NCBI GenBank assembly: GCA_964554725.1
Contig: CAZKQE010000001.1
Coordinates: 1 to 38,115 of the forward strand
Reading direction: 5' to 3'
DNA length: 38,115 nt
DNA from: an uncultured bacterium
GTDB taxonomy: Bacteria; Eisenbacteria; RBG-16-71-46
Below the pieces are notes generated by a model. That model did no database searches. It had not been told where the DNA came from and was given only the letters and a program-made list of their open reading frames with translations. A program made the translations under genes and the position numbers. Positions 8,601 through 38,115 of the stretch are shown here, one piece after another. The first letter of the stretch is position 1, and every line of letters begins with the position of its first letter.

Positions 8601-8756
8601 TCGTGTTCGGCGACCTCGCCGACCCCGAGAGCGCCGTGCACAAGGCGTCCCACGGCGAGCGGCGGTACTGGGCGCTCAACGAGCTGAACACCAAGCCCGG
8701 CGTCACCTACCTGCAGCGGATCCGGCGCGGGACCGGCGCCGTCGAGGAGCAGCCGC

Positions 8757-8764
<8 letters not shown>
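5645..8764 (+). CDS. actB: Alternative Complex III subunit ActB (fused B1 molybdopterin-oxidoreductase-like domain + B2 4-cluster ferredoxin domain)
   Basis: GTG start at 5645, 5 nt after AGGGG. The Tat signal is NRRDFLRLVGIG. The N-terminal CRECPAGCG...CARG is a MopB-type FeS motif. The C-terminal Cys clusters are CTGCSACIVAC, CQHCGDAPCETVCP and CVGTRYCSNNCPY. The upstream part of ORF 5414..8764 overlaps actA and is discarded. Confidence 0.9.
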
Positions 8765-10093
<1,329 letters not shown>

Positions 10094-10097
<4 letters not shown>

Positions 10098-10657
10098 AGC
10101 TCCCGAAGCCGCTCCTCGACCTGGTGGACGCGATCAACGCCGGCCCGCGGATGAAGTACCGCGGCGTGATGGGCGTGTTCTACTACGTGGACGACGTCGC
10201 CGAGACGGTGCGCACGCTGCGCCAGAGCGGCCACCGGGACCTGCGGGTGTTCTCCCCGGTGCCCCATCACGACATCGAGCGCGCGCTCGAACAGGGGCCG
10301 TCGATCGTGCGCTGGGTCACCCTCGGCGGCGCCCTGCTCGGCGTCACCGGCGGGCTCTCGCTGTGCTTCTACTCGGTCTACTCGTGGCCGCTGGTGGTCG
10401 GCGGCAAGGAGCTGTTCTCGCTGCCGCCGTTCGTCGTCATCGGCTACGAGTCCATGATCCTGCTCGGTTCGCTCGCGAACCTGTTCGGCATGCTGGCGCT
10501 GGCGCGGCTGCCGGAGCTCCGCACCTCCGCGCCGCCCGACCCGCGCTTCACCGAGGACCGCATCGGCGTGTGGGTGCCGTGCGAGGGCGAGGCCGCCGCG
10601 CGCGTGCAGGAGCTGCTGCGCGGGCACGGCGCCGAGGAGGTCACCCTCCATGCTTAG
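10094..10657 (+). CDS. actD: Alternative Complex III subunit ActD (DUF3341-like, two TM helices)
   Basis: The start ATG 10094 overlaps the actC stop (ATGA). Sequence MKLPKP...YRGVMGVFYYVDDVAETVRTLRQSGH... has a soluble N-domain followed by two hydrophobic helices. Its position between actC and actE fits ActD. Confidence 0.8.
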
Positions 10658-11195
10658 GAGCGTGATCGCCCTGGTCGCGGCCGCGATCCTCACCCTGTTC
10701 GCCGTCCCCAGCTTCCAGCAGGGGTTCAAGGACGCCGTGAACTCGCTCACCCACCTCGCCTACTATCCGATCCGCGACATGCGGAAGTCGGTGGCGCCGT
10801 CGCCGCAGAAGGGCGTCTACCGGACGCCGGACGAGGCGAGCGTCCCCACCACCGGGAAGGAGCCGGCGATCGACCGCGACCTCGCGGCGACCGTGCTGCG
10901 CAACCCGGTCCCGACCAGCGACGCCTCGGTCGCGCGCGGCGATTCGCTCTACCGTCGCCTGTGTCTGCCGTGCCACGGCGCCGCGCTGGCGGGGGACGGC
11001 CCGGTGGCCGCTCAGTTCATGCCGCCGCCCGACCTGCTCGGGCAGCAGACGCGCGAGCGCCGGGACGGGTTCCTCTATTCCTACATCCGGCACGGCGGCG
11101 TCGTCATGCCGAGCTACGGCTTCCAGCTCAGCGCCGAGGAGGCATGGCACATCGTGAACTTCATCCGTCACCATCAGAAGGCGACCCCGCGGTGA
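10650..11195 (+). CDS. actE: Alternative Complex III subunit ActE, monohaem cytochrome c
   Basis: 181 aa with an N-terminal anchor and a single CLPCH haem motif; the distal Met region is GGVVMPSYG. There is an 8-nt overlap with actD. Confidence 0.85.
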   Translation: MLRSVIALVAAAILTLFAVPSFQQGFKDAVNSLTHLAYYPIRDMRKSVAPSPQKGVYRTPDEASVPTTGKEPAIDRDLAATVLRNPVPTSDASVARGDSLYRRLCLPCHGAALAGDGPVAAQFMPPPDLLGQQTRERRDGFLYSYIRHGGVVMPSYGFQLSAEEAWHIVNFIRHHQKATPR

Positions 11196-17640: not shown

Positions 17641-20628
17641 TCAACGGGCGCGCACCAGGGTCCGGGACAGCGCCGCGCCGCCCGCCGTCAGGCGGACGAA
17701 GTAGGTGCCGCTCGCGAGCGACGCGCCGCGGTCGTCGCGGCCGTCCCAGTCGACCCCATGGCGTCCCGCCGCGCGGTGTCCGTCCACCAGGGCGCGCACG
17801 GCGCGGCCGGCGACGTCGTAGAGGACCAGGCGCACCGGTCCGGCGGCCGGCACGGCGTAGTCGAGCCGCAGCGCCCCGGGCGCCGGATGCCCGGAGGCCA
17901 GCCGCAGCGCGAGGGCGGCGGGCGCCGGCGCTTCCCCGACCGCGACCACGTCGCTGAAGGCGAGCAGCTCGAGGTCGTCCACCGCGGCCTCGACCAGCGA
18001 GCCCGAGCCGGCGTCCTCGGCGATGAAACGGAGCCGGATCTGGCTCGTGGGCTCGACGTAGTCCGCGATCCGGAACAGCACGCGCCGCCAGCTCGCGTCG
18101 CTCGCGGTCGTGTTCTCGACGCTCACCCAGTCGAATCCGCCGTCGTTCGAGATGTCCACCCGCCAGACGTCGAGCCCCGGGCTCGACCCCTGGTTGTTCG
18201 TGTACCAGCGCCAGTAGCTGATGACCGGGTCGTGCGTGCCGTCGGGGGTGGCGTCGAGGAAGGCGGTGGTGAGCGTCGTGCGCCCGCCGTCCACGTCGTT
18301 CGTGCCGGCCGGGGAGCCCAGGGTCGCGTTGCCGGTGACGAAGCACTGGAGCCCGGCCACCGTGTGGTCGTCCTCGGGCTGGACGTCGATGCCGGCGGTC
18401 ACCTGGGTGCCGATCGGGTCGGCCCGCACCCAGAGACCGGTGGTCGCGTTGTCCCCGGCCGCTCCCACGGTCCAGCCGGGATCGACCTCCATGTCGCGCA
18501 CCAGCAGCGTGGTCGCCGGTCCGGCGAGGAAGCGGTGGGTCGCGGAGGCCGGCGCCGCCGCCGGGTGGGTGACGGACTCGCCGTAGGAGTCCGCCGCGCG
18601 GACGTAGTAGCGCACGACCGCGCCGGAGACGCCGGGGATGGAGGCGGTGAACTCGTCCGGGTTCCCGGTCGGGGACATCGGCACGCTGCCGAAGGCGCCG
18701 TCGTTGAAGGCGTAGTGGAGGCTGGGCGCGCCCGCGAGCGCCCCGAACGGGCCGGCGTAGGTCACCGTGGCGGTGACCGGGAAGGGGCCGGCGCCGGGCT
18801 GGTCGGCCAGCGGGGCGTGGACGATGTCCATGAAGTAGCCGGTGCCGATGCCGTGCGCGTTGAAGGCGGCGACGATCGCGGCGCCGTTCGGCGTGCCGTT
18901 CCCGAGATCGGCGTCGTCGTCGTCGGCGACCAGCGTCTCGATGAAGTACTCGTTCATCGCCACGCCGTCGTCCGGGTCGTCGGGGATCCCGTACTTGGCG
19001 AAGTGGGAGAGCTGCGCGGCGACCGCGAGGCCCGCCGACTGCCGCAGGTCCCAGAACGCGCCGCCGATGATGAGCCCGGTGACGTGGCCGTCGCCGCTCG
19101 CGTCCTCGGGCCACCGGCGGGTGTTGTCGATCGTGCGCAGGACCGTCGCGGGGCCGAAGAAACCCTTGCCGACGTTGGGGTCGTCCTGGATCATCGCCGC
19201 CAGCACGTCCGCCATCCCCTCGTGCAGGGCGCCGTTGTTCATCCCCGACCCCTGCCCGGCCTGCTGGTAGATCTCGTGGTTCACCATGTGGCCGTACTCG
19301 TGGTAGACGACGTCGGGCATGGTGGCGGTGTTCGGGCAGCCGCCGCCGGCGGCGTAGAAGTTCACCGAGCCGTCTGCCGTGCTGTAGAAGGCGTTGCAGG
19401 TGCTGGCGATGTTGACCTTGCAGGGCACCACGTAGTCCACGCCCACCGCCCCGGGGTCCAGCGTCTTCACGTAGTCGTGGACGAGCTGGACGTGGTGGAA
19501 GCCGTCGCGCTCGGCATCGTGCGAGTTCGCGGCGGTGAAGGCGATGTCCACCGTCGCCGGGTCGGCGGCCGGGGTCGAGAACGAGGCGTCCGGCACCCCG
19601 TCCTGCCGGTGGACGTCCACGAAGGGACCGCGCAGCTGGGCGCTCACCGTGACCGCGCCGCCGGGCGAGTGTCCGTAGGCGCCGCCGGCGTCGGTGGTCA
19701 CCGCCGTCGGGCCGACGTTCACGGTGAGGCCGCGCAGCGGCCGGGCGACGGTCGCGTCGGTCGGCAGCAGCGGATGGACCGTGCCGGTCGCGGTGCCGGT
19801 GATCGCGTGGCGGACGTGGTTGCGGCGCCACAGCACCTCCCCGGTCGCGGCGTCGACCAGCGTGCGCCAGTCGCCCGGCGGATCGGCGGTCACCACGCGC
19901 GCCTCGGTGACGACCCGCAGGCCCGGGCCCTCCGCCGCGACGAGCGGCAGCAGCGCGAGCGTCTCGGCCCCCTCGACCCGGTCGCGCGCCGGGTCGAAGG
20001 CGAGGCCGGCGCGGGCGGCGGCCCGCGCGACCGACACCGGCAGCCGGCCCGCGACCGGCAGCTCGTGGTCGGCGACGCGGTGGGCGTCGGCGCCGAAGGA
20101 GAGCAGCCGGCCGTTCCCCGACACGCGGAACTCCCAGTCGCCGAACAGCACCGGCAGGCCGGCCACGAGCTGGCGGAAGCTCACGTACCAGGTGCCGCGC
20201 ACCCGCTGCGCGCGCGTCCGCTCGAGGACCGGGGCGCCGAACAGCCCGGGGTGGCCGGCGATGAAGGCGCGCAGGGCCGCCTCGACCGCGTCCGCACGGT
20301 CGGCGAAGCCGGCGAGCGGGATCGCCGGGCCCAGCGCACGGTGCGGGCTCGCGGTGCGCGCGTTCCACAGCGCGGTCCATGCCCCGTGCCGGTCGGTGAA
20401 CCCGCGCCACGGCGCGGCGGCCTCGAGCCGGGCGCGGGTCGCGGCATCCGCCGGGACCACCGCGCCCGCGCCGGGGGCGCGGATCCCCGCGTCCGTCGTC
20501 GCGTCGGGGGCGCGCACCGCGCGGGCGGGGACGGCGGCGAGCGTGAGGGCGAGGAGCGCGGGGATCGCGAACGCGGACCGGGCGCCGGGGGCGCGGAGCG
20601 CGGCGGAACGGCGGGGTCGGCGGTCCAT
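17641..20628 (-). CDS. Secreted zinc metalloprotease (gluzincin, M4/M36 thermolysin-fungalysin-like) with C-terminal FlgD-Ig / T9SS-CTD-like domain
   Basis: 995 aa and the only convincing minus-strand gene. GGGAGG lies upstream of the ATG (20628). It has a signal peptide and an FTP/PepSY-like propeptide region. The catalytic motifs are VVYHEYGHMVNHE (HExxH) plus LHEGMADV (third Zn ligand Glu). The C-terminus is VRLVLYDVAGRAVRAL...VDWDGRDDRGASLASGTYFVRLTAGG...LVRAR. Confidence 0.8.
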   Translation of the reverse strand: MDRRPRRSAALRAPGARSAFAIPALLALTLAAVPARAVRAPDATTDAGIRAPGAGAVVPADAATRARLEAAAPWRGFTDRHGAWTALWNARTASPHRALGPAIPLAGFADRADAVEAALRAFIAGHPGLFGAPVLERTRAQRVRGTWYVSFRQLVAGLPVLFGDWEFRVSGNGRLLSFGADAHRVADHELPVAGRLPVSVARAAARAGLAFDPARDRVEGAETLALLPLVAAEGPGLRVVTEARVVTADPPGDWRTLVDAATGEVLWRRNHVRHAITGTATGTVHPLLPTDATVARPLRGLTVNVGPTAVTTDAGGAYGHSPGGAVTVSAQLRGPFVDVHRQDGVPDASFSTPAADPATVDIAFTAANSHDAERDGFHHVQLVHDYVKTLDPGAVGVDYVVPCKVNIASTCNAFYSTADGSVNFYAAGGGCPNTATMPDVVYHEYGHMVNHEIYQQAGQGSGMNNGALHEGMADVLAAMIQDDPNVGKGFFGPATVLRTIDNTRRWPEDASGDGHVTGLIIGGAFWDLRQSAGLAVAAQLSHFAKYGIPDDPDDGVAMNEYFIETLVADDDDADLGNGTPNGAAIVAAFNAHGIGTGYFMDIVHAPLADQPGAGPFPVTATVTYAGPFGALAGAPSLHYAFNDGAFGSVPMSPTGNPDEFTASIPGVSGAVVRYYVRAADSYGESVTHPAAAPASATHRFLAGPATTLLVRDMEVDPGWTVGAAGDNATTGLWVRADPIGTQVTAGIDVQPEDDHTVAGLQCFVTGNATLGSPAGTNDVDGGRTTLTTAFLDATPDGTHDPVISYWRWYTNNQGSSPGLDVWRVDISNDGGFDWVSVENTTASDASWRRVLFRIADYVEPTSQIRLRFIAEDAGSGSLVEAAVDDLELLAFSDVVAVGEAPAPAALALRLASGHPAPGALRLDYAVPAAGPVRLVLYDVAGRAVRALVDGHRAAGRHGVDWDGRDDRGASLASGTYFVRLTAGGAALSRTLVRAR

Positions 20629-28100: not shown

Positions 28101-28207
28101 CCTCGACCGTCCTGACGCTGGTCCTGGTGCCCTGCCTCTACACGCTGCTCGAGGACGGCTGGGGGATGGTCGGCCGCGTCTGGCGCCGGGGGCCGCGGGC
28201 CGCCTGA
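25175..28207 (+). CDS. RND efflux transporter, inner-membrane pump, paralogue 2
   Basis: GTG start at 25175, 10 nt after the paralogue 1 stop. 1010 aa with the same architecture (LRHPVTASMVLICMLVLG, GLMLAVGMLVDNAVVVLE, LLILIGIVVNNGIVLVYH). It is clearly diverged from paralogue 1. Confidence 0.9.
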   Translation: MNLPRWSLRHPVTASMVLICMLVLGAISAPRLPLAFLPEVSFPGIEITIPYPNALPAQVEEEITRPAEEALATLSRVRRISSWSSTNAANIYVEFDWGEDIAPLRVEAREKLERIRDRLPVDVDQIQVNSFRSSDIPVLECRISADRDLSRDYELLNRNVADPLRRVPGVAKVELYGVEPPQVRIDFSLAALQRHGLDAERVLARLDASSRSLNAGLLRRGDEAWPLRVVNQFATLREFQDFPVDERGLRLADIATVALAEPDLDYGRHLDRSRAIGLNVIKESGANTVEVAERARRVLDAVGRDPQLGGIRVLTFTDQGQDIRNSLEGLMHAGIVGALLATGVLFFFLRNAVTTTVVAIAIPFSLLAASALMFFSGRTLNILSMMGLMLAVGMLVDNAVVVLESIHRHREAGRSNLRATLLGSREVLPAVLSSTATSIIVFLPLVLGGRTEITTWIGEVGRTIIFTLVCSLFLSLTAIPLAMGRLLQARVGPPSNALLRIAAFHQRVLHWTLTHRPASAGIAVAVFVGAILAFLPVDKSAFTASKVEGVGIQYEFSDNLNHREVEKYVTRVEDWIHERMDSLNVRSTYSYFTNNSGFTRAYLASGHQHDEGADVLRKALRARLPALPGVKLRLRGRDEDSGPSRITVRLFGDPGPRLDGLAEEVQRRLARVPGLNDVVVGGERGRQEVEVVVDRDRAFGYGLTTAEVGGAVARFFRGRSLARFRGPDGEVQVQARLAESDRSSLDQLDRFPVVVEGEGTVPLGSLADFRTVRTPAGVERQQRRSILAVRGNCDSKKAGEIRKNVSREMDGMSFPVGYSWSFGSGFEEADQTQQEMMLNLILALMLVYLVMAALFESLLHPFAIMLALPFAFVGIAWISLLTGSPFNLMAQIGLLILIGIVVNNGIVLVYHIHQLRERGVERTRAIEEAARDRLRPILMTTLCTILGLLPLAIGGNAVGDVLYYPLARTVIGGLAASTVLTLVLVPCLYTLLEDGWGMVGRVWRRGPRAA

Positions 28208-28609
28208 ACCGCGTCCCCGTCGGCGGGGTCGTACCCGTGCGACGCCGGCGCTGGGCACAATGCGGGCGCCGCCCCGCGGAACGCATGCTCCGGCCTGGGG
28301 GAACCCACCCTCGGGGTCCCATCCGCGACGTTCCGGGGCCGTCCCCTCGCACCCCCGCTCCGCGACCAGACCCTTGCGCCGCAAGGCGCTGAATGCTGCG
28401 GCCCGCGTCGGCTCGCCTTTCGCACGATGGCGCGGCACGGCGGCTGCCACGGGCGCGGACGCCGGAGCCGGACGGTCGGAACGACGACGGGTCCGCGGCG
28501 GCCCCCCCTGGCCGCGATCCTTCACGCCGCCCGACTCGACGCTACGCGACGCGACGCCTCCCGACCACCGGGGGGCGCGGTCGATCCCGCTCCCCAACTT
28601 CGAGGTGGC

Positions 28610-31600
28610 ATGGTGCGCAGGGTAACGCTGATCTCATGGATGACGGCCGGACTGGCGCTCGCGGTCGCCGCGTTCGCGCCGGCCGTCGCGCTGGCGGGTC
28701 CCTACAGCCGGCTCCAGGTGCTGCTGCCCGGCGAGACCGCCGCCCCCGGCACGCCGAGCGGCAAGACCGGCACGCCGAACCGGCAAACGGCGGGCGTGCC
28801 GTTCACGGTGACCGTGCGGGCCTGCGACACGAACTGGGACCTGGTGCCGACGACGACGAGTGCCATCGAGATCCTGGCCTCGGACGCCAGCGCCACGCTG
28901 CCCGCGCCGGCCCAGCTGGTGGGCGGCACCGCCGGCTTCACGGTGACGTTCAACGCCGGCGGCACCTTCACCGTCTTCGCCCACGACCAGACCGACGGCA
29001 CGATCCCGGACGGCGCCTCGGCGGCGGTCCAGTCGCTGGTGTTGCAGGGCTTCCGCTTCGCGACGATCTCGCAGAAGCACAAGTACGCCGGTGTCCCGGA
29101 CGGCACCACGATCACCGCGATCGACCCGGCCGGCAACACCGTGACCGGCTTCTCCGGCCCGGTGCGGCTCAAGGAGATCACCAGCTTCGGCGACGGCCGC
29201 ATCAGCCCCGAGGTGGTGACGTTCAGCAACGGGCAGTGGAGCGGCAACGTCACGATGTACCGCGCGGACGAGAGCAGCATCAACCGCGGCAACGTGAACA
29301 TGTACGCCTACCTCGAGGCGGCGCCGCAGAAGAACGGCACCAGCGACCCGTTCATCGTCCACCCGGGGCCGTTCGCCCGCGTCCAGCTCGTGGTGCCCGG
29401 CGAGTCGCCGCTGCCCGGCAGCGTCTCGGGCAAGGTCGGGACGCCGGCCACCCAGAGCGCCGGGCGCGCCTTCGTCGTGAGCGTGTGGGCGACCGACGCC
29501 TACTGGAACCCGGTGCCGAGCGGCGACAACGTGCGGCTCACCTCGAGCGACGGCGCCGCGAACACACCGCTCACCGGTGTGATGAGCAACGGCTTCCGGC
29601 AGTTCAGCCCCAGCCTCGGCACCGTCGGCACCCAGACGCTGACGATCGCCGACCTCACGAACGGATCCATCCAGGGCATGACGAGCCCCGGGATCCAGGT
29701 GATCCCGAGCTCGGTGGACCGTTTCGTGGTCTCGACCATCGCCTCGCCGCAGGTCGCCGGGGTTCCGGTCACCGTCACGATCCGCGCCACCGACGCCAGC
29801 GGGAACACGATCCCCGGCTTCGCCGGCGACGCCGTGCTGGTCGCCAACACCGGTGCGGGCAGCATCGCGCCCGAGTTCGTCACCTTCTCCGCCGGGACCT
29901 GGAGCGGTCCGATGGTGTTCAAGGGCGCGGGCGGCGCGGTCTCGTTCGCGGTCGCCGACTTCTCGGCCCCGCCGCACACCGGCGCCAGCAACAGCTTCAC
30001 CGTGAATCCCGGCCCCTTCAGCGGCCTCCAGGTGCTGCTGCCGGGCCAGTCGCCGCGCGGCGGCACCGCCGACGGCAAGGAAGGCGACCCGACGGCCCAG
30101 CAGGCCGGCACCGCCTTCACGCTGACGGTGCGGGCGGTGGACGCGTTCTGGAACCTGGTGAGCGGCGTCACGGACAGCATCGCCCTCGGCTCGAGCGACG
30201 CGGCGGCCGGGATGCCGGCGCGCACCCGGCTCACCGGCGGGCAGGCGCTGATCCCGACCACGCTCTACCGGACCGGCAGCCAGCGCATCTGGGCCAGCGA
30301 CATCACGCAGCCTTCCATCCGGCCCGACACCTCGAGCGCGGTGTCGGTGGGCGGCGGTCCGTTCGCGCGCGTGCTGGTGCTGGCGCCGGGCGAATACCCG
30401 CTGCCGGGCACGCCGGGTGGCCGCGGCGGCGCGGCGACCGACCAGTCCATCAACTACGCCTTCAACGTCACCGTGCTCGCCACCGACAACTGGTGGAACC
30501 CGGTCGGCGGCGTGACCGACGTCGTCCGCATCACCTCGGATGACCCGCTCGCCACCCTGCCGCCCGACCAGGCGCTGGTGGACGGCCAGGCCGAGATGCC
30601 GGTGCGGCTGGCGCGCGGCGGCTACAACCAGATCACGGTGAGCGACGTGACGCGGCCCTCGATCCCGGGCAGCAGCACGCAGGTGCGGGCGATCTCGAGC
30701 GGCTTCCACCTCGAGGCCTCGATCAGCCCCTCCTCGGCCCGCGCCGGGGAGCCGTTCACGCTCACGGTGAAGGTCACGAACGACGCCGGCAGCGTGATCC
30801 AGGAGATCAACTCGTTCGTCACGCTCGAGGTGCAGAACGCCTCGACCCGCGGCCCCGGCCGCGGCACGCTGCTGACCACCCAGTTCCAGCTCCTGCAGGG
30901 CCAGCGGGCGGTGTCGGAGACCTACACGTTCGCCGAGCCGATCGTCATCATCGCCCGCGACGACGCCGGCAACGCCCCGGCCACCTCGAACGCGATCACG
31001 ATCGGCCCCGGCCAGCCGACCGCGATCCGCCTCGCCAGCGCCCCGCCCTGGGTGGGGGGCAACAAGCACGCGACCGTGAGCGCGCGCCTGGTGGACGCGT
31101 TCGAGAACGGCGTGCCCGACCAGGCGATGACCTTCGCGGTCCTCGCCGGCGCCGGCCAGCTGACCCCGCTCGACTCCCTCACCGCCGCCGACGGCGTGGC
31201 GCGCGCCGACTTCCTGAGCCCGCGCCAGCCCGAGATGGGGCGCGTGCGCGCCTCGTCGAACGGTCTCGTCGCCGACCTCGACCTGCAGACCGCGTTCGTC
31301 GACCCCAACGCCGCCGGCGGGCACATCACGAACTATCCGAACCCGTTCCACCCGCCGAACGAGCCCACCACGATCGCCTACCAGCTCGCGGACCACGCGA
31401 CGGTGACGATGCGGATCTTCACGCTCAGCGGTGACCTGGTGCTCCAGCGCACCTTCGCGCGCGGCGACGCGGGCGGCGCCTCCGGGCTCAACGAGGTCGC
31501 CTGGGACGGGCGCAACGGCGAGGGCCGCGTGGTCGCCAGCGGCGGCTACATCGTGCTGGTCGAAGCGCAGGGGACCGGCGAGACCCTGCACGTCATCCGC

Positions 31601-31624
31601 CGCAAGATCGCGGTCGTCCGCTAG
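28610..31624 (+). CDS. Large secreted/surface protein built of alternating Ig-like repeats with C-terminal FlgD-Ig / T9SS-CTD-like domain (putative adhesin)
   Basis: ATG 28610 follows GAGGTGG. The signal peptide ends AVALA-GP. There are four A-type repeats of about 115 aa (consensus GPFxRxQVLLPGE..PG...GK.G.P..Q.AG..F.VTV.A.D..WN.V), three B-type repeats of about 100 aa (AGVP.T.TI.A.D..GNT..GF.G...FS.G.WSG) and one Big-like domain. The tail is NYPNPFHPPNEPTTIAYQL...WDGRNGEGRVVASGGYIVLVE...RRKIAVVR. Confidence 0.75.
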   Translation: MVRRVTLISWMTAGLALAVAAFAPAVALAGPYSRLQVLLPGETAAPGTPSGKTGTPNRQTAGVPFTVTVRACDTNWDLVPTTTSAIEILASDASATLPAPAQLVGGTAGFTVTFNAGGTFTVFAHDQTDGTIPDGASAAVQSLVLQGFRFATISQKHKYAGVPDGTTITAIDPAGNTVTGFSGPVRLKEITSFGDGRISPEVVTFSNGQWSGNVTMYRADESSINRGNVNMYAYLEAAPQKNGTSDPFIVHPGPFARVQLVVPGESPLPGSVSGKVGTPATQSAGRAFVVSVWATDAYWNPVPSGDNVRLTSSDGAANTPLTGVMSNGFRQFSPSLGTVGTQTLTIADLTNGSIQGMTSPGIQVIPSSVDRFVVSTIASPQVAGVPVTVTIRATDASGNTIPGFAGDAVLVANTGAGSIAPEFVTFSAGTWSGPMVFKGAGGAVSFAVADFSAPPHTGASNSFTVNPGPFSGLQVLLPGQSPRGGTADGKEGDPTAQQAGTAFTLTVRAVDAFWNLVSGVTDSIALGSSDAAAGMPARTRLTGGQALIPTTLYRTGSQRIWASDITQPSIRPDTSSAVSVGGGPFARVLVLAPGEYPLPGTPGGRGGAATDQSINYAFNVTVLATDNWWNPVGGVTDVVRITSDDPLATLPPDQALVDGQAEMPVRLARGGYNQITVSDVTRPSIPGSSTQVRAISSGFHLEASISPSSARAGEPFTLTVKVTNDAGSVIQEINSFVTLEVQNASTRGPGRGTLLTTQFQLLQGQRAVSETYTFAEPIVIIARDDAGNAPATSNAITIGPGQPTAIRLASAPPWVGGNKHATVSARLVDAFENGVPDQAMTFAVLAGAGQLTPLDSLTAADGVARADFLSPRQPEMGRVRASSNGLVADLDLQTAFVDPNAAGGHITNYPNPFHPPNEPTTIAYQLADHATVTMRIFTLSGDLVLQRTFARGDAGGASGLNEVAWDGRNGEGRVVASGGYIVLVEAQGTGETLHVIRRKIAVVR

Positions 31625-31630
31625 GAGGGC

Positions 31631-32908
31631 ATGATGATCCCCAATCGCAGGTCATGGACGGGCGGGGTCGCCCTGCTGGCGACGCTGACGCTGGCGGGCC
31701 CGGTCCGCGCCCAGGTGCAGAACGCCGGCGGTCCCGGCGAGTGGTTCAACCGTTACACCACCGCGCGCACGCTCGGGCTCGGGGGCGCGTTCGTCGCCGT
31801 GGCGGACGACCCGCTCGGCGTCCTCTGGAACCCGGCCGGGCTGTCGGCGATGGACCAGAACGAGCTGCGGTTCGAGAACGCACGGCTGTTCGAGGACACC
31901 TCGATCAACGGCATCGCGTTCGCGGTCCCGGGCAGCCGGTTGCCCAGCTTCGGCGTCAGCGTCGTGTCGCTCGGCTCGGGCGAGTTCCAGCGCACGAACG
32001 ACATGAACGACCCGCTCGGCACCTTCCGCCAGGGCGAGACCGCCTACCTGCTGACCGCCGCGAAGGCGTTCTCGACCCGGTTCGCGGTGGGGGCCAACGT
32101 CAAGCTGGTCCAGCAGCGGGTCGAGGACTTCACCGCCGGCGGGTTCGGCATGGACCTGGGCGGCTGGTACGTCGTCCGCCCCGGCCTCCGGGTCGGCGGA
32201 TCGGTCGCCAACCTGGGCGGGCCGAAGCTGACGCTGCGGTCGGTCGAGGAGGCGTGGCCCACCCAGGTCCGCGGCGGCGTCGCGGCCCAGGTGCTCGGGG
32301 GCCGCGGCCTGATCGTGGCCCAGATGGACCACTCCCAGGGGCTCGGCGCCCGCTTCCACGCCGGCGGCGAGTACTGGATCCAGCCGGGGCTCGCCCTGCG
32401 CGCGGGCGTGGACGACGCGGCCGGCACCGGCGGGTTCAGCGTGCGGTTCGCGGACCAGTACCAGGTGGACTACGGCGTCGCCGACCACCCGCTCGGGATG
32501 ACCCACCGGGTCGGCGTGAGCTACCGGTTCGGCGGATTCTTCGCCAGCTCGCGGGCCGAGCCCGCCGTGTTCTCGCCCACCGGCGAGCGGGCGGTGACGC
32601 AGATCCAGCTCAACGCGCGCACCAAGGCGGACGCGCAGGACTGGACGCTGGAGATCGTCAACAAGGCGCAGGAGGTGGTGCGGCGCTTCGGCGGCAGCGG
32701 CCAGACGCCCGCCCACATCCAGTGGGACGGCAAGGACGAGTCCGGCATGCCGCTCGCCGACGGCAGCTACCGCTACCAGCTGGTGGTGAAGGACCGCGAG
32801 GGCCGGCGCATCGCCGGGCCGGTGCGGCAGGTCGAGATCTCGACCGCCGGCCCGCAGGGACAGGTCCCGGTGGTCCAGGCGCAGGAAACCCCGCAGGAGC
32901 CGCGATGA
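31631..32908 (+). CDS. PorV/PorQ-like outer-membrane beta-barrel fused to a C-terminal FlgD Ig-like domain
   Basis: AGGAGGG lies upstream; ATG 31631 or 31634 could be the start. The signal peptide ends GPVRA-QV. The signature ARTLGLGGAFVAVADDPLGVLWNPAGL is typical of the PorV/PorQ (UPF0164/FadL-like) family. Alternating beta-strand patterns run to aa ~300 and end in SYRF. The region aa ~309-404 has WDGKDESGMPLADGSYRYQLVV (FlgD-Ig signature). Confidence 0.65.
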   Translation: MMIPNRRSWTGGVALLATLTLAGPVRAQVQNAGGPGEWFNRYTTARTLGLGGAFVAVADDPLGVLWNPAGLSAMDQNELRFENARLFEDTSINGIAFAVPGSRLPSFGVSVVSLGSGEFQRTNDMNDPLGTFRQGETAYLLTAAKAFSTRFAVGANVKLVQQRVEDFTAGGFGMDLGGWYVVRPGLRVGGSVANLGGPKLTLRSVEEAWPTQVRGGVAAQVLGGRGLIVAQMDHSQGLGARFHAGGEYWIQPGLALRAGVDDAAGTGGFSVRFADQYQVDYGVADHPLGMTHRVGVSYRFGGFFASSRAEPAVFSPTGERAVTQIQLNARTKADAQDWTLEIVNKAQEVVRRFGGSGQTPAHIQWDGKDESGMPLADGSYRYQLVVKDREGRRIAGPVRQVEISTAGPQGQVPVVQAQETPQEPR

Positions 32909-35900
32909 GCCCGCGCCGCACCGTGCCCGCCGCCCTCCCGGCGGCCGGGCTGATGCTGATCGCGTCCCTGGCCGCCGCGCCGGACGCCGGGGCGGGCCGC
33001 GCCGCGCCGGCGCGGCCGGACGGGTCGGTCCCGACGCTGCGCGAGATCGGCGAGGACTTCGAGCAGGTCCGCACGCTGTCCGGCGCCCCGCGTTCGACCG
33101 CGCTCGCGCAGTCGCAGCAGGCGCTCGAGCAGGCGCTGCGCGGCAGCCTCGAGGAGGAGCGGCGCGCGGCCGCGCGCCTGCTCGCCGGGGCCGTCGCGTT
33201 CGAGCTGGGCGACTACGCCCACGCCGGCGTGCGCCACCGCGAGGCGGCGTCCGGCCTCGGCAAGGGCCCGTTCGCCGACGACGCGGAGTTCGCGGCGATC
33301 GAGGCGCAGCAGGCGGCCGGCGACGACGCCGGGGCGGCGCGTGAGTGGGCGAAGTGGGAGAAGCGGCACCCGGCGAGCCCGTTGCTGCCGGTGGCGCGGC
33401 TCGAGCAGGCCTGGAACGAGCTCCGGCGCGGGGAGACCGCGGCGGCGCAGAAGCGGCTCGCCGCGCTGGCGGTCTCGCATCCCTGGATCGCGCGCGACGC
33501 GCGCTTCACCCTGGCGCGGGCCACCGCCGCCTGGCAGGCGGGCCAGCCGGCGGAGGCACTCGCCCTGCTGGGGCCGCGACCGACCGGAGCCCCGGCGCTC
33601 TACCTGCGCGCCCTGTGCCTCGAGCGCCAGGGTTCGCTGCTCAAGGCGGCCGCCGCCTTCCAGGAGGTCGCCGAGCGTCACGCGACGAGCGCGCTGCGAG
33701 ACCCGGCGCTGCTCGGCAAGGCCGGCACCTTCCTCGCCGCCCGGGACCATCGCAGCGCCGCCGAGGAGTTCGCCCGCGTGGCCCAGCGCGTCCGCGACCC
33801 GCGCATCCGGGCCGAGGCCGAACTGCGGCGGGCCGGGGCGGTGTTCCTGGCCGGGGGGACGGACTCCGCGCTGTCGCTGCTGCGGGCGGTGGTCGTCGCC
33901 CACGGCGGGACCGACGTCGCCGCCCGCGCCCAGTTCCTGGTCGGCGAGGCGCTCATCGCCCGGGACGACCCGGCGGGGGCGATCGTCGAGTTCAACCGCG
34001 TGCTCGCGAGCTACTTCCAGCACCAGGTGGCGGCCAGCGCCCAGTACCGGGTCGCCCGCTGCCTGGACCAGCTCGGGCGGCGCGCCGAGGCCACCGGCAG
34101 CTACCAGGCGGTGGTGTCCGGCTATCCGCTCGAGGCGGAGGCCCCGGCGGCCGCCTACCTGGCCGGCGTCGGTCTCCTGGACCAGAACAAGCCCCTGGCC
34201 GCCGCGCCCTACTTCCAGCTGGTGCTCGACCGCTACGCGCGGTCGCGCGAGGCCGGCGGGCACCTGGTGTTCGCGTCGCCCGAACACCAGGAGCTGGTCG
34301 AGGCGGCGCTGTGCCTGCTCCAGTACAGCTACCACCGCGCCGGCGACCTCGGGCAGCTCTCCGGGGCGCCCCACCTGCTGCTCCGCCGGATGCCGCCCAG
34401 CCGCTCGCCGTGGCGCGCCTACGCGCTGCTGATCGACGCCGACGCCGCGGCCGCCCAGGCCCGCTATCCCGAGTCCCAGGCGACCCTCGAGCAGGTCCTG
34501 CGCGAGTTCCCCGACCATCCGGTCGGCGCCTCCGCGACCAAGCTGCTGGCGTGGACCTACGCCCGCCAGGGTCGCGACAGTCTCGCGATCGCCACCGAGG
34601 AGCGCCTGCTGGCGCGCTACGGCTCGACCGGCCGCAGCGAGGTGCTGGCGGCGGCGTTCCTCGACATCGCCCACGAGCGCTTCAACCAGAAGCGCTACCG
34701 GGAGTCGGCGGGCGCCTACGAGGACTTCCTGCGCCGCTTCCCCGGCCACCCGCGGCGGCTGCTGGCGCTCTACCAGGCGGGGCTCTGCTACCTGCGGCTC
34801 GACCGCGCGGGCGACGCGGCGGACCGCTGGGAGGCGATCGTGCGCGACAGCGCCGGCGCCCCGATCGCCGAGCGCGCCTGGGCGCGGGTGGGGGACGTCT
34901 ACTTCCAGGCCGAGCGCTACGAGGACGCGCGCCGCTGCTACCGCGGCCTGCTCGAGCACTTCGCCGGCAGCTCGGCCGCGTCGCTGGCGACCCTGCGGCT
35001 CGCCCAGTGCGAGTACAACGCCGGCCGCGACGCGGCGGCGCTGGAGGCGTTCGCGACCGTCCTCGAGCGCTTCCCGGGCACGCCGGCCGCGCGCGAGGCG
35101 ACCCGCGGCACCGAGCGCGCGCTCTACCGTCTGAGCCAGGGCCCGGACGGCACCGGGGTGCTGGAGCGGCTGGTCGAGCAGTACCCGGCCAGCGCGTTCG
35201 CCGCCGACGCGCAGTTCCAGATCGGCCGCCGTCACTACCAGGAGAAGCGCTTCGCCGAGGCCGCGGACCACTTCCGCCGCGTCGTCAGCCGCTTCCCCGG
35301 CTACTCGGCCGCCGACCAGGCCCAGTTCCTGATCGCCGACGCCCAGGCGCAGGCCGGCGCGACCGAGGAGGCGCGGCAGGCCTACGAGCAGTTCCTGGCC
35401 TACTTCCCGGGCAGCGAGCTGGCCGCCACCGTCCACTTCCGCCTCGGCCTGATGCGCTTCGAGGCCAAGGACTACATGCAGGCCGCGGTCGCCTTCACCC
35501 GCGTGCTCGACGACTCCGCGAGCGGCGAGGTGCGCGCCGCCTCGCGCTACAACCTGGCGCTGTGCCAGCGGCTGCTCGGGCGCACGGTCGAGGCGCGCGA
35601 GGGGCTCGAGCAGTACCGGCGCGACTTCCCGGGCGACGCGCGGGCGGCCGAGGTGGCGTTCCAGCTCGGCGACCTCGCCGACGCGGCGGGCCAGCCGGCG
35701 GCGGCGGCCGAGGAGTTCGACCTCGCGCTGCGCTCGCGCCCCGCGCGGACGCTCGCGATCGAGATCCAGTACCGGCTCGGGCGCGCCCGCGAGCAGCTCG
35801 GCGACGCGGACGGGGCGCTGGCGGCCTATCAGGGGGCGGCGGCGGCGACCGACCGCGACCATCCGTTCCGCCTCTCCGCGCTGGCGCGCTGCGCCGCGCT

Positions 35901-36036
35901 CTACGAGACGCGCAAGGACCACGCGCGGGCCCTCACGGCCTACCGCGACATCATGAAGCACGCCAAGGACCCCGAGCTCGTGGGGGCGGCCGGTGATCGC
36001 GTCGCCCAGCTCGAAGCCGGTGCGCGCAAGCGGTAG
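32905..36036 (+). CDS. Giant periplasmic tetratricopeptide-repeat protein (array of YbgF/BamD-type TPR units)
   Basis: ATG 32905 overlaps the previous stop (ATGA). 1043 aa with a signal peptide (LMLIASLAAAPDAGA). Ten or more repeats follow the pattern A..A.F.LG......Y..A...F..V...FPG...A..A. Examples are RFPGHPRRLLALYQAGLCYL, QYPASAFAADAQFQIGRRHY, RFPGYSAADQAQFLIADA and YFPGSELAATVHFRLGLM. Confidence 0.8.
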   Translation: MSPRRTVPAALPAAGLMLIASLAAAPDAGAGRAAPARPDGSVPTLREIGEDFEQVRTLSGAPRSTALAQSQQALEQALRGSLEEERRAAARLLAGAVAFELGDYAHAGVRHREAASGLGKGPFADDAEFAAIEAQQAAGDDAGAAREWAKWEKRHPASPLLPVARLEQAWNELRRGETAAAQKRLAALAVSHPWIARDARFTLARATAAWQAGQPAEALALLGPRPTGAPALYLRALCLERQGSLLKAAAAFQEVAERHATSALRDPALLGKAGTFLAARDHRSAAEEFARVAQRVRDPRIRAEAELRRAGAVFLAGGTDSALSLLRAVVVAHGGTDVAARAQFLVGEALIARDDPAGAIVEFNRVLASYFQHQVAASAQYRVARCLDQLGRRAEATGSYQAVVSGYPLEAEAPAAAYLAGVGLLDQNKPLAAAPYFQLVLDRYARSREAGGHLVFASPEHQELVEAALCLLQYSYHRAGDLGQLSGAPHLLLRRMPPSRSPWRAYALLIDADAAAAQARYPESQATLEQVLREFPDHPVGASATKLLAWTYARQGRDSLAIATEERLLARYGSTGRSEVLAAAFLDIAHERFNQKRYRESAGAYEDFLRRFPGHPRRLLALYQAGLCYLRLDRAGDAADRWEAIVRDSAGAPIAERAWARVGDVYFQAERYEDARRCYRGLLEHFAGSSAASLATLRLAQCEYNAGRDAAALEAFATVLERFPGTPAAREATRGTERALYRLSQGPDGTGVLERLVEQYPASAFAADAQFQIGRRHYQEKRFAEAADHFRRVVSRFPGYSAADQAQFLIADAQAQAGATEEARQAYEQFLAYFPGSELAATVHFRLGLMRFEAKDYMQAAVAFTRVLDDSASGEVRAASRYNLALCQRLLGRTVEAREGLEQYRRDFPGDARAAEVAFQLGDLADAAGQPAAAAEEFDLALRSRPARTLAIEIQYRLGRAREQLGDADGALAAYQGAAAATDRDHPFRLSALARCAALYETRKDHARALTAYRDIMKHAKDPELVGAAGDRVAQLEAGARKR

Positions 36037-36072
36037 CGCGCCGGACGACCACCCCACCAAGGAGCGATCCCG

Positions 36073-36723
36073 ATGTTCGAGAACTTCGACTGGCTGGAGG
36101 CGATGCGCAACAGTCCGGTGATGCTGGTCATCCTGGCCTGCAGCGTCATCACGTTCGGGTTCGCGCTCGAGCGGATCATCTACTTCTGGAAGCGACGCCA
36201 GGACCCCGAGTCGCTGATGCAGAAGGTGGCCGAGCAGGTGCGCACGGGCGGCATCAAGGAGGCGCTGTGGACCTGCACCGCCTCCCCGCACCCGGCGGGC
36301 GCCGCGGCGGCGCAGGTGCTGAAGAACGCCCACCTGCCGGGCGAGCACCAGGAGGAGCGGCTGCAGATCACGCTCAGCGAGCAGCGGCTGCTGCTCGAGC
36401 GCAACCTGGGGGTGCTCGGCACCATGGGCAACACGGCGCCGCTCATCGGCCTGCTCGGCACGGTGTGGGGCATCATGCGCGCGTTCCACGACATGGCCCG
36501 CACCGGCTCGGCCGGCCCCTCGGTGGTCGCCGCCGGCGTCGCGGAGGCGCTGTTCACCACCGCCGCGGGGCTGCTGGTCGCGGTCCCGGCGGTGCTGCTC
36601 TACAACCACTTCGTCCGGCGCATGGGCGTCATGCTGACCACCGCCGAGAACCACGCGCGCGGCCTGCGGCTCACTCTGAGCGAGCCGGCGACGGGCGAGT
36701 CCGCCGCGTCGCGGGTCGCCTGA
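36073..36723 (+). CDS. MotA/TolQ/ExbB-family proton channel
   Basis: AAGGAG lies upstream. 216 aa with three TM helices and the family signature LGTMGNTAPLIGLLGTVWGIMRAF...AEALFTTAAGLLVAVPAVLLYN. Confidence 0.9.
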   Translation: MFENFDWLEAMRNSPVMLVILACSVITFGFALERIIYFWKRRQDPESLMQKVAEQVRTGGIKEALWTCTASPHPAGAAAAQVLKNAHLPGEHQEERLQITLSEQRLLLERNLGVLGTMGNTAPLIGLLGTVWGIMRAFHDMARTGSAGPSVVAAGVAEALFTTAAGLLVAVPAVLLYNHFVRRMGVMLTTAENHARGLRLTLSEPATGESAASRVA

Positions 36724-36731
36724 GTCCGACC

Positions 36732-37139
36732 ATGTCCCGTCGCTCCCGTTCGAAGCGTCCGGAAGGCATCACCGAGCCGAACATGGTGCCGCTCATCGAC
36801 GTCTCGCTGGTGCTGGTGGTCATCCTGCTCGTCGCCACGCCGATGGCCCTCCAGTCGGGGATCGCGGTCTCGCGCGCGGCCGCGAGCGGCCGCGAGGCGG
36901 CGCCGGCCCGCACCGAGCGGGTCGAGATCGCCATCCTGGGCCCCGACGAGATCGTGGTGAACCGCTCGCCGGTCGCCCGCGGGGCGCTGGGCCCGCGCCT
37001 GCGGGCGCTGCTCGACGCGAGCGCGACCCGGCAGGTGGTCGTGCGCTGCGCCGACACGGTCGCCCACGGGGACTTCGTCGCCGTCCTCGACGAGGCCCGC
37101 GCGCAGGGCGCGGCCGCGATCGCCGTCGTGGGGAGATGA
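36732..37139 (+). CDS. ExbD/TolR-family protein, paralogue 1
   Basis: 135 aa. The N-terminus is EGITEPNMVPLIDVSLVLVVILLV (the conserved Asp-containing TM helix), followed by a periplasmic domain ending DFVAVLDEARAQG. It starts 8 nt after the exbB stop. Confidence 0.85.
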   Translation: MSRRSRSKRPEGITEPNMVPLIDVSLVLVVILLVATPMALQSGIAVSRAAASGREAAPARTERVEIAILGPDEIVVNRSPVARGALGPRLRALLDASATRQVVVRCADTVAHGDFVAVLDEARAQGAAAIAVVGR

Positions 37140-37140
37140 G

Positions 37141-37566
37141 ATGATCCGTCGCCGACAGGCCTGGTCCGAGATGATCACCCGCCCCAACATGACGCCGCTC
37201 ATCGACGTCGCGCTGGTGCTGGTCATCATCCTGCTCGTCACCGCGCCCCTGCTCTCGGTCGCCGACCTGCCGGTCAACCTGCCGCAGGCGGTGACGCGCG
37301 AGGCCGAGAACCAGCGCAACGTGAGCATCACGATGGGCGCCGACGGGCGCCTGGCGGTGGACGAGCAGGTGGTGGCCGCCGACGCCCTGGTCGGCGCGCT
37401 CCGGGCGCGGCTCGCCGAGCCCGGCAACGAGAACGTGCTGGTGGTCGTGCGCGCGGACTCCGGCGCGCCGTACGCGAGCGTGAAGGTGCTGCTCGAGCAG
37501 GCGCGGGTCGCGGGGGCGAAGCGGCTGGCCCTCGCCACGCGCCAGCGCGTGAGGGCCCACTCGTGA
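37141..37566 (+). CDS. ExbD/TolR-family protein, paralogue 2
   Basis: 141 aa. Sequence ITRPNMTPLIDVALVLVIILLVTAP...VVVRADSGAPYASVKVLLEQARVAG. It starts 1 nt after the paralogue 1 stop. Confidence 0.85.
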   Translation: MIRRRQAWSEMITRPNMTPLIDVALVLVIILLVTAPLLSVADLPVNLPQAVTREAENQRNVSITMGADGRLAVDEQVVAADALVGALRARLAEPGNENVLVVVRADSGAPYASVKVLLEQARVAGAKRLALATRQRVRAHS

Positions 37567-38115
37567 GCGCGGCCGTGATCCCGAACGAGCGGCAGGAGTA
37601 CCGGCGCCGCGCGCGGCTCGGCCTGGGCACCAGCTTCGTCCTCCACGTGCTGCTCCTGCTGTGGATCGTGCTCGCGCCGCGCGAACCGGAGCACCTGCAG
37701 CCCCTGACCGAGATCACTTTGATCGAGCCCGGCGAGCCGGGCGGTGCGCCGGCCGCGGCGGCGGCGCCGGCGGCGGCCGCCGGCGTCCGCGCCGGCGTGG
37801 CGGTGAGCCACCGCGCGGACGAGAGCTTCCGCCGCCTCACCACCACCGACGAGCTGACGCCGGAGCCGCAGTCGCCCACCGCCTTCGCGGACCGCATCGC
37901 CGCCCGGCTGGCGGCGCTCAGCGAGAGCGCGCCGACCCCGGTGCAGGGCATCTCGTCCTCGGCGATCGCCGACGGCTGGAGTGCGCCCGCCCCGGGCGGC
38001 GCGCTGGGTGGCGGCGGCAGTGCGCTGGCGCTCCACCGCGGCGGCGGCGGCAGCGCGAGCGGTCCCTCGCTGGCGCTCCATCGCGGCGGCGGCGGCGGGC
38101 CCGCCGCGGCGATCG
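37563..38115 (+). CDS. TonB/TolA-like energy-transducing anchor protein, N-terminal part (3' end outside window)
   Basis: This gene is not in the ORF track because no stop is reached. GTG 37563 overlaps the exbD2 stop (GTGA). My own translation is VSAAVIPNERQEYRRRARLGLGTSFVLHVLLLLWIVLAP..., a single TM helix with the SxxxH motif shared by TonB and TolA. It continues with a Pro/Ala/Gly-rich low-complexity region containing two ALALHRGGGG repeats. Confidence 0.6.
   Translation, partial: MSAAVIPNERQEYRRRARLGLGTSFVLHVLLLLWIVLAPREPEHLQPLTEITLIEPGEPGGAPAAAAAPAAAAGVRAGVAVSHRADESFRRLTTTDELTPEPQSPTAFADRIAARLAALSESAPTPVQGISSSAIADGWSAPAPGGALGGGGSALALHRGGGGSASGPSLALHRGGGGGPAAAI

Follow-up and report, generated by a model that had tools for sequence, protein, structure and literature searches.

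Gene organization of the locus

The window, i.e. the whole stretch of 38,115 nucleotides (nt) that was analysed, covers one 38-kb contig from end to end and belongs to a genome of Candidatus Eisenbacteria. From position 28610 to its end, the forward strand carries seven genes for an immunoglobulin (Ig)-repeat protein, an outer-membrane barrel, a tetratricopeptide repeat (TPR) protein, an ExbB-type channel subunit, two ExbD paralogues and a TonB-family transducer (Table 1). Comparison with orthologous loci indicates that these genes are followed by one more and form with it a conserved operon of eight genes, hereafter the module. It joins a motor of the Ton/Agl type to a barrel and a C-terminal domain (CTD) of the kind found in type IX secretion systems (T9SS). 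The TonB-like gene is truncated because the contig ends within it. An exact look-up of the second ExbD sequence gave no match in any further contig.

Table 1. Features of the region at the 3' end of the window (aa, amino acids).
Feature	Position	Strand	Remarks
Ig-repeat protein	28610-31624	+	1004 aa
C-terminal domain (CTD) of the Ig protein	31322-31621	+	Pfam FlgD_ig; subtype 'NYPNPF ... RKIAVVR'
PorV/PorQ-family (FadL-like) barrel with FlgD-Ig domain	31631-32908	+	425 aa
Secreted TPR protein, presumed periplasmic scaffold	32905-36036	+	1043 aa
ExbB/TolQ-type proton-channel subunit	36073-36723	+	216 aa
ExbD/TolR paralogue 1 (ExbD1)	36732-37139	+	135 aa
ExbD/TolR paralogue 2 (ExbD2)	37141-37566	+	141 aa
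TonB-family transducer, first 184 residues	37563-38115	+	GTG start; cut at contig end
Sigma-54-like -24/-12 element GGCACG-N4-CTGCC, candidate operon promoter	28434-28448	+	inside 402-nt leader

The G+C content of the window is 74%, and the open reading frames (ORFs) were therefore selected by third-position G+C (GC3); the seven genes were delimited by GC3 frame analysis and translation. The intergenic gaps are 6, -4, 36, 8, 1 and -4 nt in gene order, and this tight spacing is consistent with an operon. An earlier reading of this DNA, made from its letters alone (the sequence-only reading), had given exactly the same genes and gaps. The upstream gene for a subunit of a resistance-nodulation-division (RND) pump ends at 28207, which leaves a leader of 402 nt before the Ig gene.

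Within this leader, the sigma-54-like element lies 162 nt 5' of the Ig gene and might serve as the operon promoter. The pattern GGCACGNNNNYTGCH has a single match in the window (28434-28448), where 0.3 would be expected by chance and one or more matches turned up in 23 of 100 shuffles. The element was also found at the equivalent leader position in three related loci (L001, L002 and L003), with the remaining leader poorly conserved, and was absent from the L008 leader. A promoter and terminator scan of the region gave no result, with no terminator-like site between 28000 and 38115, and an Rfam search of the window gave no match.

Conservation of the eight-gene module

Because the window is the entire contig, the sequence past its end was approached through near and remote relatives of the barrel on longer contigs. 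A profile built from all barrels returned Eisenbacteria relatives only; whereas a profile without the Eisenbacteria sequences reached other phyla. Neighbourhoods of +/-10 kb were read around each locus, with called genes and their Pfam hits in six module loci.

The eight-gene order recurs in 10 loci beyond the window, in at least five phyla. The module loci belong to Eisenbacteria (the window, L001 and L003), Goldbacteria (L004), Calditrichota (L005 and L010), a metagenome-assembled genome (MAG) of Fibrobacteraceae (L011) and a Krumholzibacteria MAG (L013); the placement of L008 (probably Eisenbacteria), L009 and L012 is uncertain. The flanks are unrelated at each module locus on both sides. 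Between phyla the eight proteins share 19-42% sequence identity, all to a similar degree.

The operon had been expected to continue beyond the window, and the orthologous loci showed an eighth gene. In the 10 loci, the TonB gene is followed by one gene with a FlgD-Ig domain and then by unrelated genes. In two Eisenbacteria relatives, gene 8 encodes 346-360 aa and either overlaps the end of the TonB gene by 4 nt or starts 32 nt after it. In its product, a signal peptide and a FlgD_ig domain are accompanied by a C-terminal domain weakly similar to the peptidoglycan-binding domains of the OmpA/MotB type (MotS, E value 0.002; Pfam OmpA in 3/10 members); a lipobox is lacking. This gene and the C-terminal FlgD_ig domain of the barrel were missing from the sequence-only reading. 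TolB and Pal genes, which that reading had named as the sign of an ordinary Tol-Pal operon if they stood directly after the TonB-like gene, are absent; no gene for TolB, a Pal-type lipoprotein or a beta-propeller was found in the module loci. The reported lack of a TonB-dependent receptor (Plug / TonB_dep_Rec) and of T9SS core genes in the window was borne out. Within +/-10 kb of the six module loci with called genes, no such receptor was found, and SprA/Sov, PorK/L/M/N (GldK-N) and PorU were not listed.

The linkage was counted with profiles from seven modules against 80 PorV/PorQ-like barrel loci from named genomes, taking the barrels with enough downstream DNA. Genes for TPR, ExbB, ExbD and TonB proteins follow 10 of the 11 barrels that have a C-terminal FlgD_ig domain, and 0 of the 58 barrels without it, a count that is not a probability because the loci are related by descent. 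The sole exception among the 11 is a 614-aa fusion of barrel, FlgD_ig and OmpA domains with no motor nearby (L055, 9902-11746). This comparison showed that the motor genes are specifically linked to barrels carrying the FlgD-Ig domain, and the conserved linkage of adhesin, barrel, TPR and motor genes on which the sequence-only reading depended was therefore found, in the same order and between different flanks.

Two loci have an additional gene without a Pfam match at the edge of the module: a 191-aa gene 4 nt past gene 8 in Goldbacteria (L004, 17835-18410), and, in Calditrichota (L005, 3003-3536), a 177-aa gene that overlaps the Ig gene at its start. These genes may be lineage-specific extra parts.

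The Ig-repeat protein and the outer-membrane barrel

Behind its Sec signal peptide, the Ig-repeat protein carries about nine Ig-like domains and then the C-terminal tail domain. A self-BLAST search revealed no internal repeats; the repeats came out by motif search, and include four 'PFxRxQVLxPGE...WN' copies besides Big_1-like domains. The orthologs range from 547 to 2269 aa, and the architecture of Big_1 domains and tail is common to all module loci. The tail passed the Pfam FlgD_ig cut-off (30.1 bits; cut-off 27), aligned to the tails of PorZ (E value 1e-7) and PorU, and gave no match to Pfam Por_Secre_tail. By sequence, it resembles the uncleaved PorZ and PorU tails. The subtype 'NYPNPF ... 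RKIAVVR' is conserved beside the barrel in the module loci examined.

The barrel (residues ~30-305) passed the NCBIfam subfamily model of PorV and PorQ (NF033709, PorV_fam; 101 bits, cut-off 90), and remained below the cut-offs of the equivalogs PorQ (83 vs 220 bits), PorV (20 vs 250) and PorV2 (52 vs 325). TIGR03519 (PorP/SprF) did not match the window barrel, and the L011 barrel reached only E 0.049 (13 vs 90.6 bits). An AlphaFold2 (AF2) model built on 22 homologues (mean predicted local distance difference test score, pLDDT, 87) showed a barrel and then a beta-sandwich. The top Foldseek matches of this model were FadL (2r89) and PorV (6h3i_F; TM 0.62), the latter being the PorV of the SprA-PorV complex. 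As modelled, the barrel has the FadL/PorV fold; by its equivalog scores it is closest to PorQ. An N-terminal segment (residues ~33-75) is conserved. The barrel had been described as PorV-like and as a shuttle of CTD cargo; the PorV/PorQ family was supported, but within it the protein lies closer to PorQ, and a dedicated anchor for an uncleaved tail, not a shuttle, is the likeliest role.

The second domain of this protein (residues ~307-419) matched Pfam FlgD_ig with 34 bits. The L055 fusion places it in the periplasm, since OmpA domains bind peptidoglycan, and the domain is therefore probably periplasmic.

Tail and barrel genes also occur as neighbours outside the module. An ORF with a CTD lies directly 5' of about 29 of 70 PorV/PorQ-like barrels with upstream DNA, and 10 more loci were cut upstream. 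Fusions of the barrel with TPR domains were found in Zixibacteria and Elusimicrobiota, each immediately 3' of a protein whose tail is of the module subtype; this subtype was conserved at both of these fusion loci that were read. The fusions indicate that tail, barrel and TPR are linked independently of the motor. The tail/barrel pair is an older unit than the eight-gene module.

Some of these loci have other domain combinations. For example, a 555-aa barrel-FlgD_ig-TPR fusion (L043, 5630-7297) lies 3' of a 1082-aa CTD-tagged protein with no motor nearby. In an Elusimicrobiota genome (GCA_043819795.1; L007, 1-18000), a 12,253-aa protein with the tail subtype of the module is followed by a barrel-TPR fusion, and then by a 660-aa FliG_M/FliG_C protein with TPR, a 761-aa coiled-coil protein, FlbD, MotA and MotB. 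The presence of a different motor set (MotA/MotB/FliG-like) beside the same tail/barrel-TPR pair is consistent with a motor-driven function.

The TPR protein and the motor proteins

The families proposed for the TPR protein, ExbB and the two ExbD proteins were confirmed by Pfam and NCBIfam. The TPR protein contains modules of the YbgF/CpoB and BamD types (tol_pal_ybgF, 241 bits across 7 stretches) and scored 100 bits against PorW/SprE, under the cut-off of 250. Its N-terminus is similar to a signal peptide and has no lipobox cysteine. Orthologs, of 840-1069 aa, occur at every module locus for which gene lengths were available.

ExbB matched Pfam MotA_ExbB (107 bits) and was equally close to the solved sequences of TolQ and ExbB. 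Against the NCBIfam equivalogs it scored 114 bits for TolQ (cut-off 221) and 100 bits for ExbB, both under the cut-offs. The two ExbD proteins matched Pfam ExbD with 62 and 91 bits and did not reach the cut-off of the NCBIfam ExbD equivalog; those of TolR (50-71 vs 127 bits) and TolA (18-31 vs 59 bits) were not reached in the module either. Two ExbD paralogues are common in the TonB operons of the Fibrobacteres-Chlorobi-Bacteroidetes (FCB) group, and are therefore not distinctive in themselves. The transmembrane Asp residue carries the proton in ExbD/TolR. It is retained by ExbD1 in 11/11 modules; whereas in ExbD2 it is present in the window and replaced by Gly, Cys or Asn in 6/11 modules (L005, L009, L010, L011, L012 and L013). 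This pattern argues for a fixed ExbD1/ExbD2 heterodimer, and would fit such a heterodimer within an ExbB pentamer.

The TonB-like fragment of the window has a transmembrane helix with the SxxxH motif (SFVLH), as had been noticed before, and a Gly/Ala-rich linker. SxxxH is kept in all TonB orthologs examined. The full-length orthologs are 311-458 aa long and all those examined end in TonB_C (Pfam, 49-55 bits; TIGR01352, 44-57 bits); in two Eisenbacteria relatives the protein has 312 aa with a true TonB_C domain. Among the solved structures, TonB was the sole match.

Relationship to the Agl-Glt and type IX systems

The core complex of the Agl-Glt system was described as a TPR-TolQ-TolR-TolR-TonB operon (Luciano et al. 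2011, PMC3169522). The same paper reports it, as one operon whose function is not known, from Fibrobacter succinogenes (Fisuc_1892-1897) and several proteobacteria; its AglRQS-GltG-TPR components are aglR-aglQ-aglS, gltC/D/E and gltG, and Fisuc_1892-1897 corresponds to FSU_2397-2403. The gene content and order of the module match this description. Both have, in one operon, a TolQ/ExbB-like channel, two TolR/ExbD paralogues, a TonB-like transducer and a TPR protein of more than 1000 aa, and the F. succinogenes proteins are similar in size to those of the module (ExbB 212 aa, TonB 308 aa, TPR protein 1292 aa). The operon of Luciano et al. therefore suggests that the resemblance to Agl-Glt, which the sequence-only reading had put down to shared logic, may be homology. 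From the gene content, the protein sizes and the full module in the Fibrobacteraceae MAG, homology of the module with the Agl-Glt/FSU_2396-2404 family is likely.

There are also differences. The module proteins scored far under the NCBIfam cut-offs for GltC (12-27 vs 450 bits), GltE (32 vs 225 bits) and GltG (12-14 vs 650 bits), and membership of these Myxococcus equivalogs was rejected. The transducer of the module has no FHA domain, and the module has a single TPR protein where Agl-Glt has two or three. Moreover, no gene-8 protein, CTD-tagged Ig protein or PorQ-like barrel with a FlgD-Ig domain belongs to the Agl-Glt complex as described. In F. succinogenes, the FSU_2396-2404 cluster was reported to be highly expressed in vivo, the FSU_2400-2403 (ExbB/ExbD/TonB) genes and the FSU_2396-2398 proteins were higher on cellulose, and the TPR protein FSU_2397 and the OmpA protein FSU_2396 were located in an outer-membrane complex.

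The barrel and the Ig protein are comparable with pairs of the T9SS. PorQ-PorZ, PorV-PorU and SprB-SprF each combine a FadL-like barrel with a secreted protein ending in an Ig-like domain. The SprB-SprF adhesin pair is driven by GldLM. As with the type-B CTD pairs, the cargo gene of the module adjoins the cognate barrel gene, and a giant repetitive adhesin occurs together with a proton-driven motor of the 5:2 type. The components of the PorQ-PorZ and PorV-PorU pairs keep their CTD uncleaved (PMC11285876), and type-B CTD proteins are anchored by PorP-like barrels according to Gorasia 2022 (cited in PMC12204202). However, the module barrel is under the PorQ, PorV and PorV2 cut-offs, does not belong to the PorP family and carries in addition a probably periplasmic FlgD-Ig domain; the tail stays under the TIGR04183 cut-off; the motor consists of ExbB, ExbD and TonB, not of PorLM/GldLM; and SprA, PorK-N and PorU are not near the module. 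The module in Goldbacteria, and the related tail/barrel pairs in Elusimicrobiota, also lie outside the phyla for which a T9SS has been reported (PMC11285876).

A literature search revealed no description of the eight-gene module, nor of a coupling between the core complex and a T9SS-type barrel/tail pair. The text of a survey of TolA/TonB evolution published in 2025 contains no mention of PorV, Fibrobacter or the FCB group. The earlier label of an undescribed system applies to the combination alone, and not to its TPR-TolQ-TolR-TolR-TonB half, which has the relative described in Luciano 2011.

Proposed function and alternative explanations

The module could encode a dedicated proton-powered machine that spans the envelope and acts on a giant adhesin anchored by the barrel. 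We regard the case for this reading as evenly balanced, its mechanism being deduced from gene content only. An ExbB pentamer around an ExbD1/ExbD2 heterodimer would turn proton flow into work on the TonB-family transducer, which would span the periplasm beside the CpoB-like TPR protein of about 1000 residues. In the outer membrane, the periplasmic FlgD-Ig domain of the 14-stranded PorQ/PorV-type barrel would pair with that of the gene-8 protein, whose weak OmpA/MotB-like domain might tie the assembly to peptidoglycan. On the outside, the barrel would hold the uncleaved CTD of the Sec-exported Ig protein, comparable to PorQ-PorZ and to the SprF-like barrels with type-B CTD adhesins. The first choice of function is that the motor drives, repositions or tensions the adhesin, as in adhesion or a gliding-like movement on surfaces; the second is that it completes the export or insertion of the adhesin. 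The sequence-only reading had also proposed a machine energised by proton-motive force. Of the two findings that it set beforehand as refuting ones, TolB and Pal genes downstream and a lack of conserved linkage, neither was made; its mechanism, too, derives from the gene content, and the interpretation is thus supported in part.

Several points weigh against this function. No TonB box was recognised on any module component. The tail, which had been called CTD-like, passed FlgD_ig and aligned to the PorZ and PorU tails, but reached only 13.5 bits in TIGR04183 (cut-off 23), and its single-sequence AF2 model (pLDDT 43) was too poor to compare and was not used. That the Ig protein lies at the surface is our inference, and two of the three FlgD-Ig-type domains of the module are probably periplasmic. 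The module loci are not phylogenetically independent samples. Calditrichota have TonB-dependent receptors, which need some TonB (PMC5317091). Finally, three Cloacimonadota loci (L080, 1671-10978; also L087 and L088) have a 993-aa gene similar to TonB-dependent receptors, then ExbB, ExbD, ExbD and a 211-aa TonB, followed by a 1002-aa CTD-tagged protein and a 326-aa PorV-like barrel without FlgD_ig. This is a second arrangement joining a Ton operon with a tail/barrel pair, and it shows that a housekeeping Ton operon can adjoin such pairs.

A bolder version of the proton-powered machine seems rather doubtful to us, though it deserves consideration: that the module is self-contained and independent of the T9SS, exporting giant CTD-tagged adhesins, holding them on the PorQ-like barrel, and moving or tensioning them by a Ton/Agl-type motor. 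If so, it would be a third kind of envelope motor propelling adhesins, beside GldLM/T9SS and Agl-Glt, and an evolutionary bridge from the Agl-Glt core complex to the T9SS attachment pairs. The Elusimicrobiota loci with MotAB/FliG-like genes would then represent different motors plugged into the same outer-membrane unit.

Among the other explanations, the module might be a housekeeping TonB operon of the FCB type, which energises ordinary receptors and in which the adhesin, the barrel and gene 8 are merely co-transcribed. The module shares with TonB-ExbB-ExbD an ExbB, ExbD proteins with the transmembrane Asp in ExbD1, and a TonB with SxxxH and a bona fide TonB_C domain, for which TonB is the only match of known structure; TonB operons of Bacteroidota often contain two ExbD genes with a TPR gene next to them. 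The receptors of Calditrichota (PMC5317091) and the receptor-like gene at the head of the Cloacimonadota operons point in the same direction. However, the eight-gene order is kept across phyla at 19-42% identity while both flanks change, and the motor genes follow FlgD-Ig barrels solely (10/11 vs 0/58), so that a chance position beside an adhesin gene, which the sequence-only reading had offered as the more mundane alternative, is unlikely. No receptor is present within +/-10 kb of the module loci with called genes; instead, the outer-membrane partner is a 14-stranded barrel of the FadL/PorV type, the ExbD paralogues are not equivalent, and the TPR protein of about 1000 aa and the FlgD-Ig/OmpA-like protein are obligatory neighbours. 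Moreover, F. succinogenes has several ExbB-like genes (PMC4619616), and therefore Ton-like sets can be specialised. A housekeeping role is accordingly considered unlikely.

A system of envelope integrity similar to Tol-Pal is likewise held to be improbable. Its motor and TonB/TolA-like protein would work on the CpoB-like TPR protein, the OmpA-like gene-8 protein and the barrel so as to tether the outer membrane to peptidoglycan, power constriction or regulate the release of vesicles, and the Ig protein would be a structural component of the envelope or coat. Like Tol-Pal with CpoB, the module has a TolQ/TolR-like motor, an elongated transducer, a TPR protein of YbgF/CpoB-type modules (241-324 bits) and possibly a peptidoglycan-associated OmpA-like protein, the weak domain of gene 8. 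ExbB and the ExbD proteins score slightly higher against the TolQ/TolR models than against those of ExbB/ExbD, one relative is the barrel-FlgD_ig-OmpA fusion, and the FSU_2396-2404 cluster of F. succinogenes was linked to outer-membrane vesicles (PMC8092306). Nevertheless, TolB and a Pal-type lipoprotein are absent from all module loci, the TolQ, TolR and TolA equivalog cut-offs are not reached, and the transducer carries TonB_C instead of the C-terminal domain of TolA; ordinary Tol-Pal was rejected on these grounds. The adhesin and the barrel are extra to Tol-Pal, and it would be hard to fit the tailed Ig proteins in the periplasm, as they have 547-2269 aa in the module and one next to a barrel-TPR fusion has 12,253 aa. 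In addition, F. succinogenes and Myxococcus xanthus keep a separate Pal or Tol-Pal system beside the related clusters (PMC6851124; PMC3169522).

The least probable explanation is TonB-gated uptake, in which the FadL/PorQ-like barrel is the channel, perhaps with its conserved N-terminal segment (~33-75) as a hatch, and the Ig protein captures an insoluble or polymeric substrate at the cell surface, as proteins of the SusD type or surface glycan-binding proteins do for SusC: we know of no TonB-dependent barrel of the FadL/PorV family, which counts against it, and no TonB box was recognised. The fold itself is of the FadL type, and the F. succinogenes cluster, which is increased on cellulose, was proposed by its authors to import cellodextrin in a TonB-dependent manner (PMC6851124); but uptake leaves the tail/barrel pairing, the gene-8 protein and the TPR protein of about 1000 aa unexplained, and no genes for substrate processing or inner-membrane transporters are linked within +/-10 kb of the six module loci.

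The preferred reading, a dedicated machine acting on the adhesin, concerns a genetic lock between a Ton/Agl-type motor and a T9SS-type barrel/tail pair with a giant adhesin. The lock occurs in several phyla that are largely uncultured and are common in soils and sediments. To our knowledge, the proton-driven 5:2 motors (MotAB, ExbBD, TolQR, GldLM and AglRQS) are the sole means of energy delivery to the outer membrane of diderms, and each new coupling partner of such a motor that we know of has uncovered a new function of the cell envelope. If the coupling is functional, the core complex of Myxococcus gliding would gain a testable outer-membrane partner, its role outside gliding bacteria having been open since 2011, and barrels of the PorV/PorQ family with cognate tails would serve outside the classical T9SS. 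If the F. succinogenes cluster is also homologous, the module would provide a possible reading of these cellulose-induced TPR/ExbBD/TonB genes.

Other features of the window

The rest of the window contains metabolic genes, a set similar to alternative complex III, the RND pump and a second secreted protein with a CTD tag. The latter (17644-20625, reverse strand) has 994 aa with an HExxH-like motif (HEYGH) and a C-terminal domain of the FlgD_ig type (43 bits); its tail subtype differs from that of the Ig protein. Between 11195 and 12617, no ORF passed the GC3 filter. At 5690-11192 on the forward strand, genes for a molybdopterin/4Fe-4S fusion, an NrfD-like membrane protein and a cytochrome c stand in a row, and resemble part of alternative complex III.

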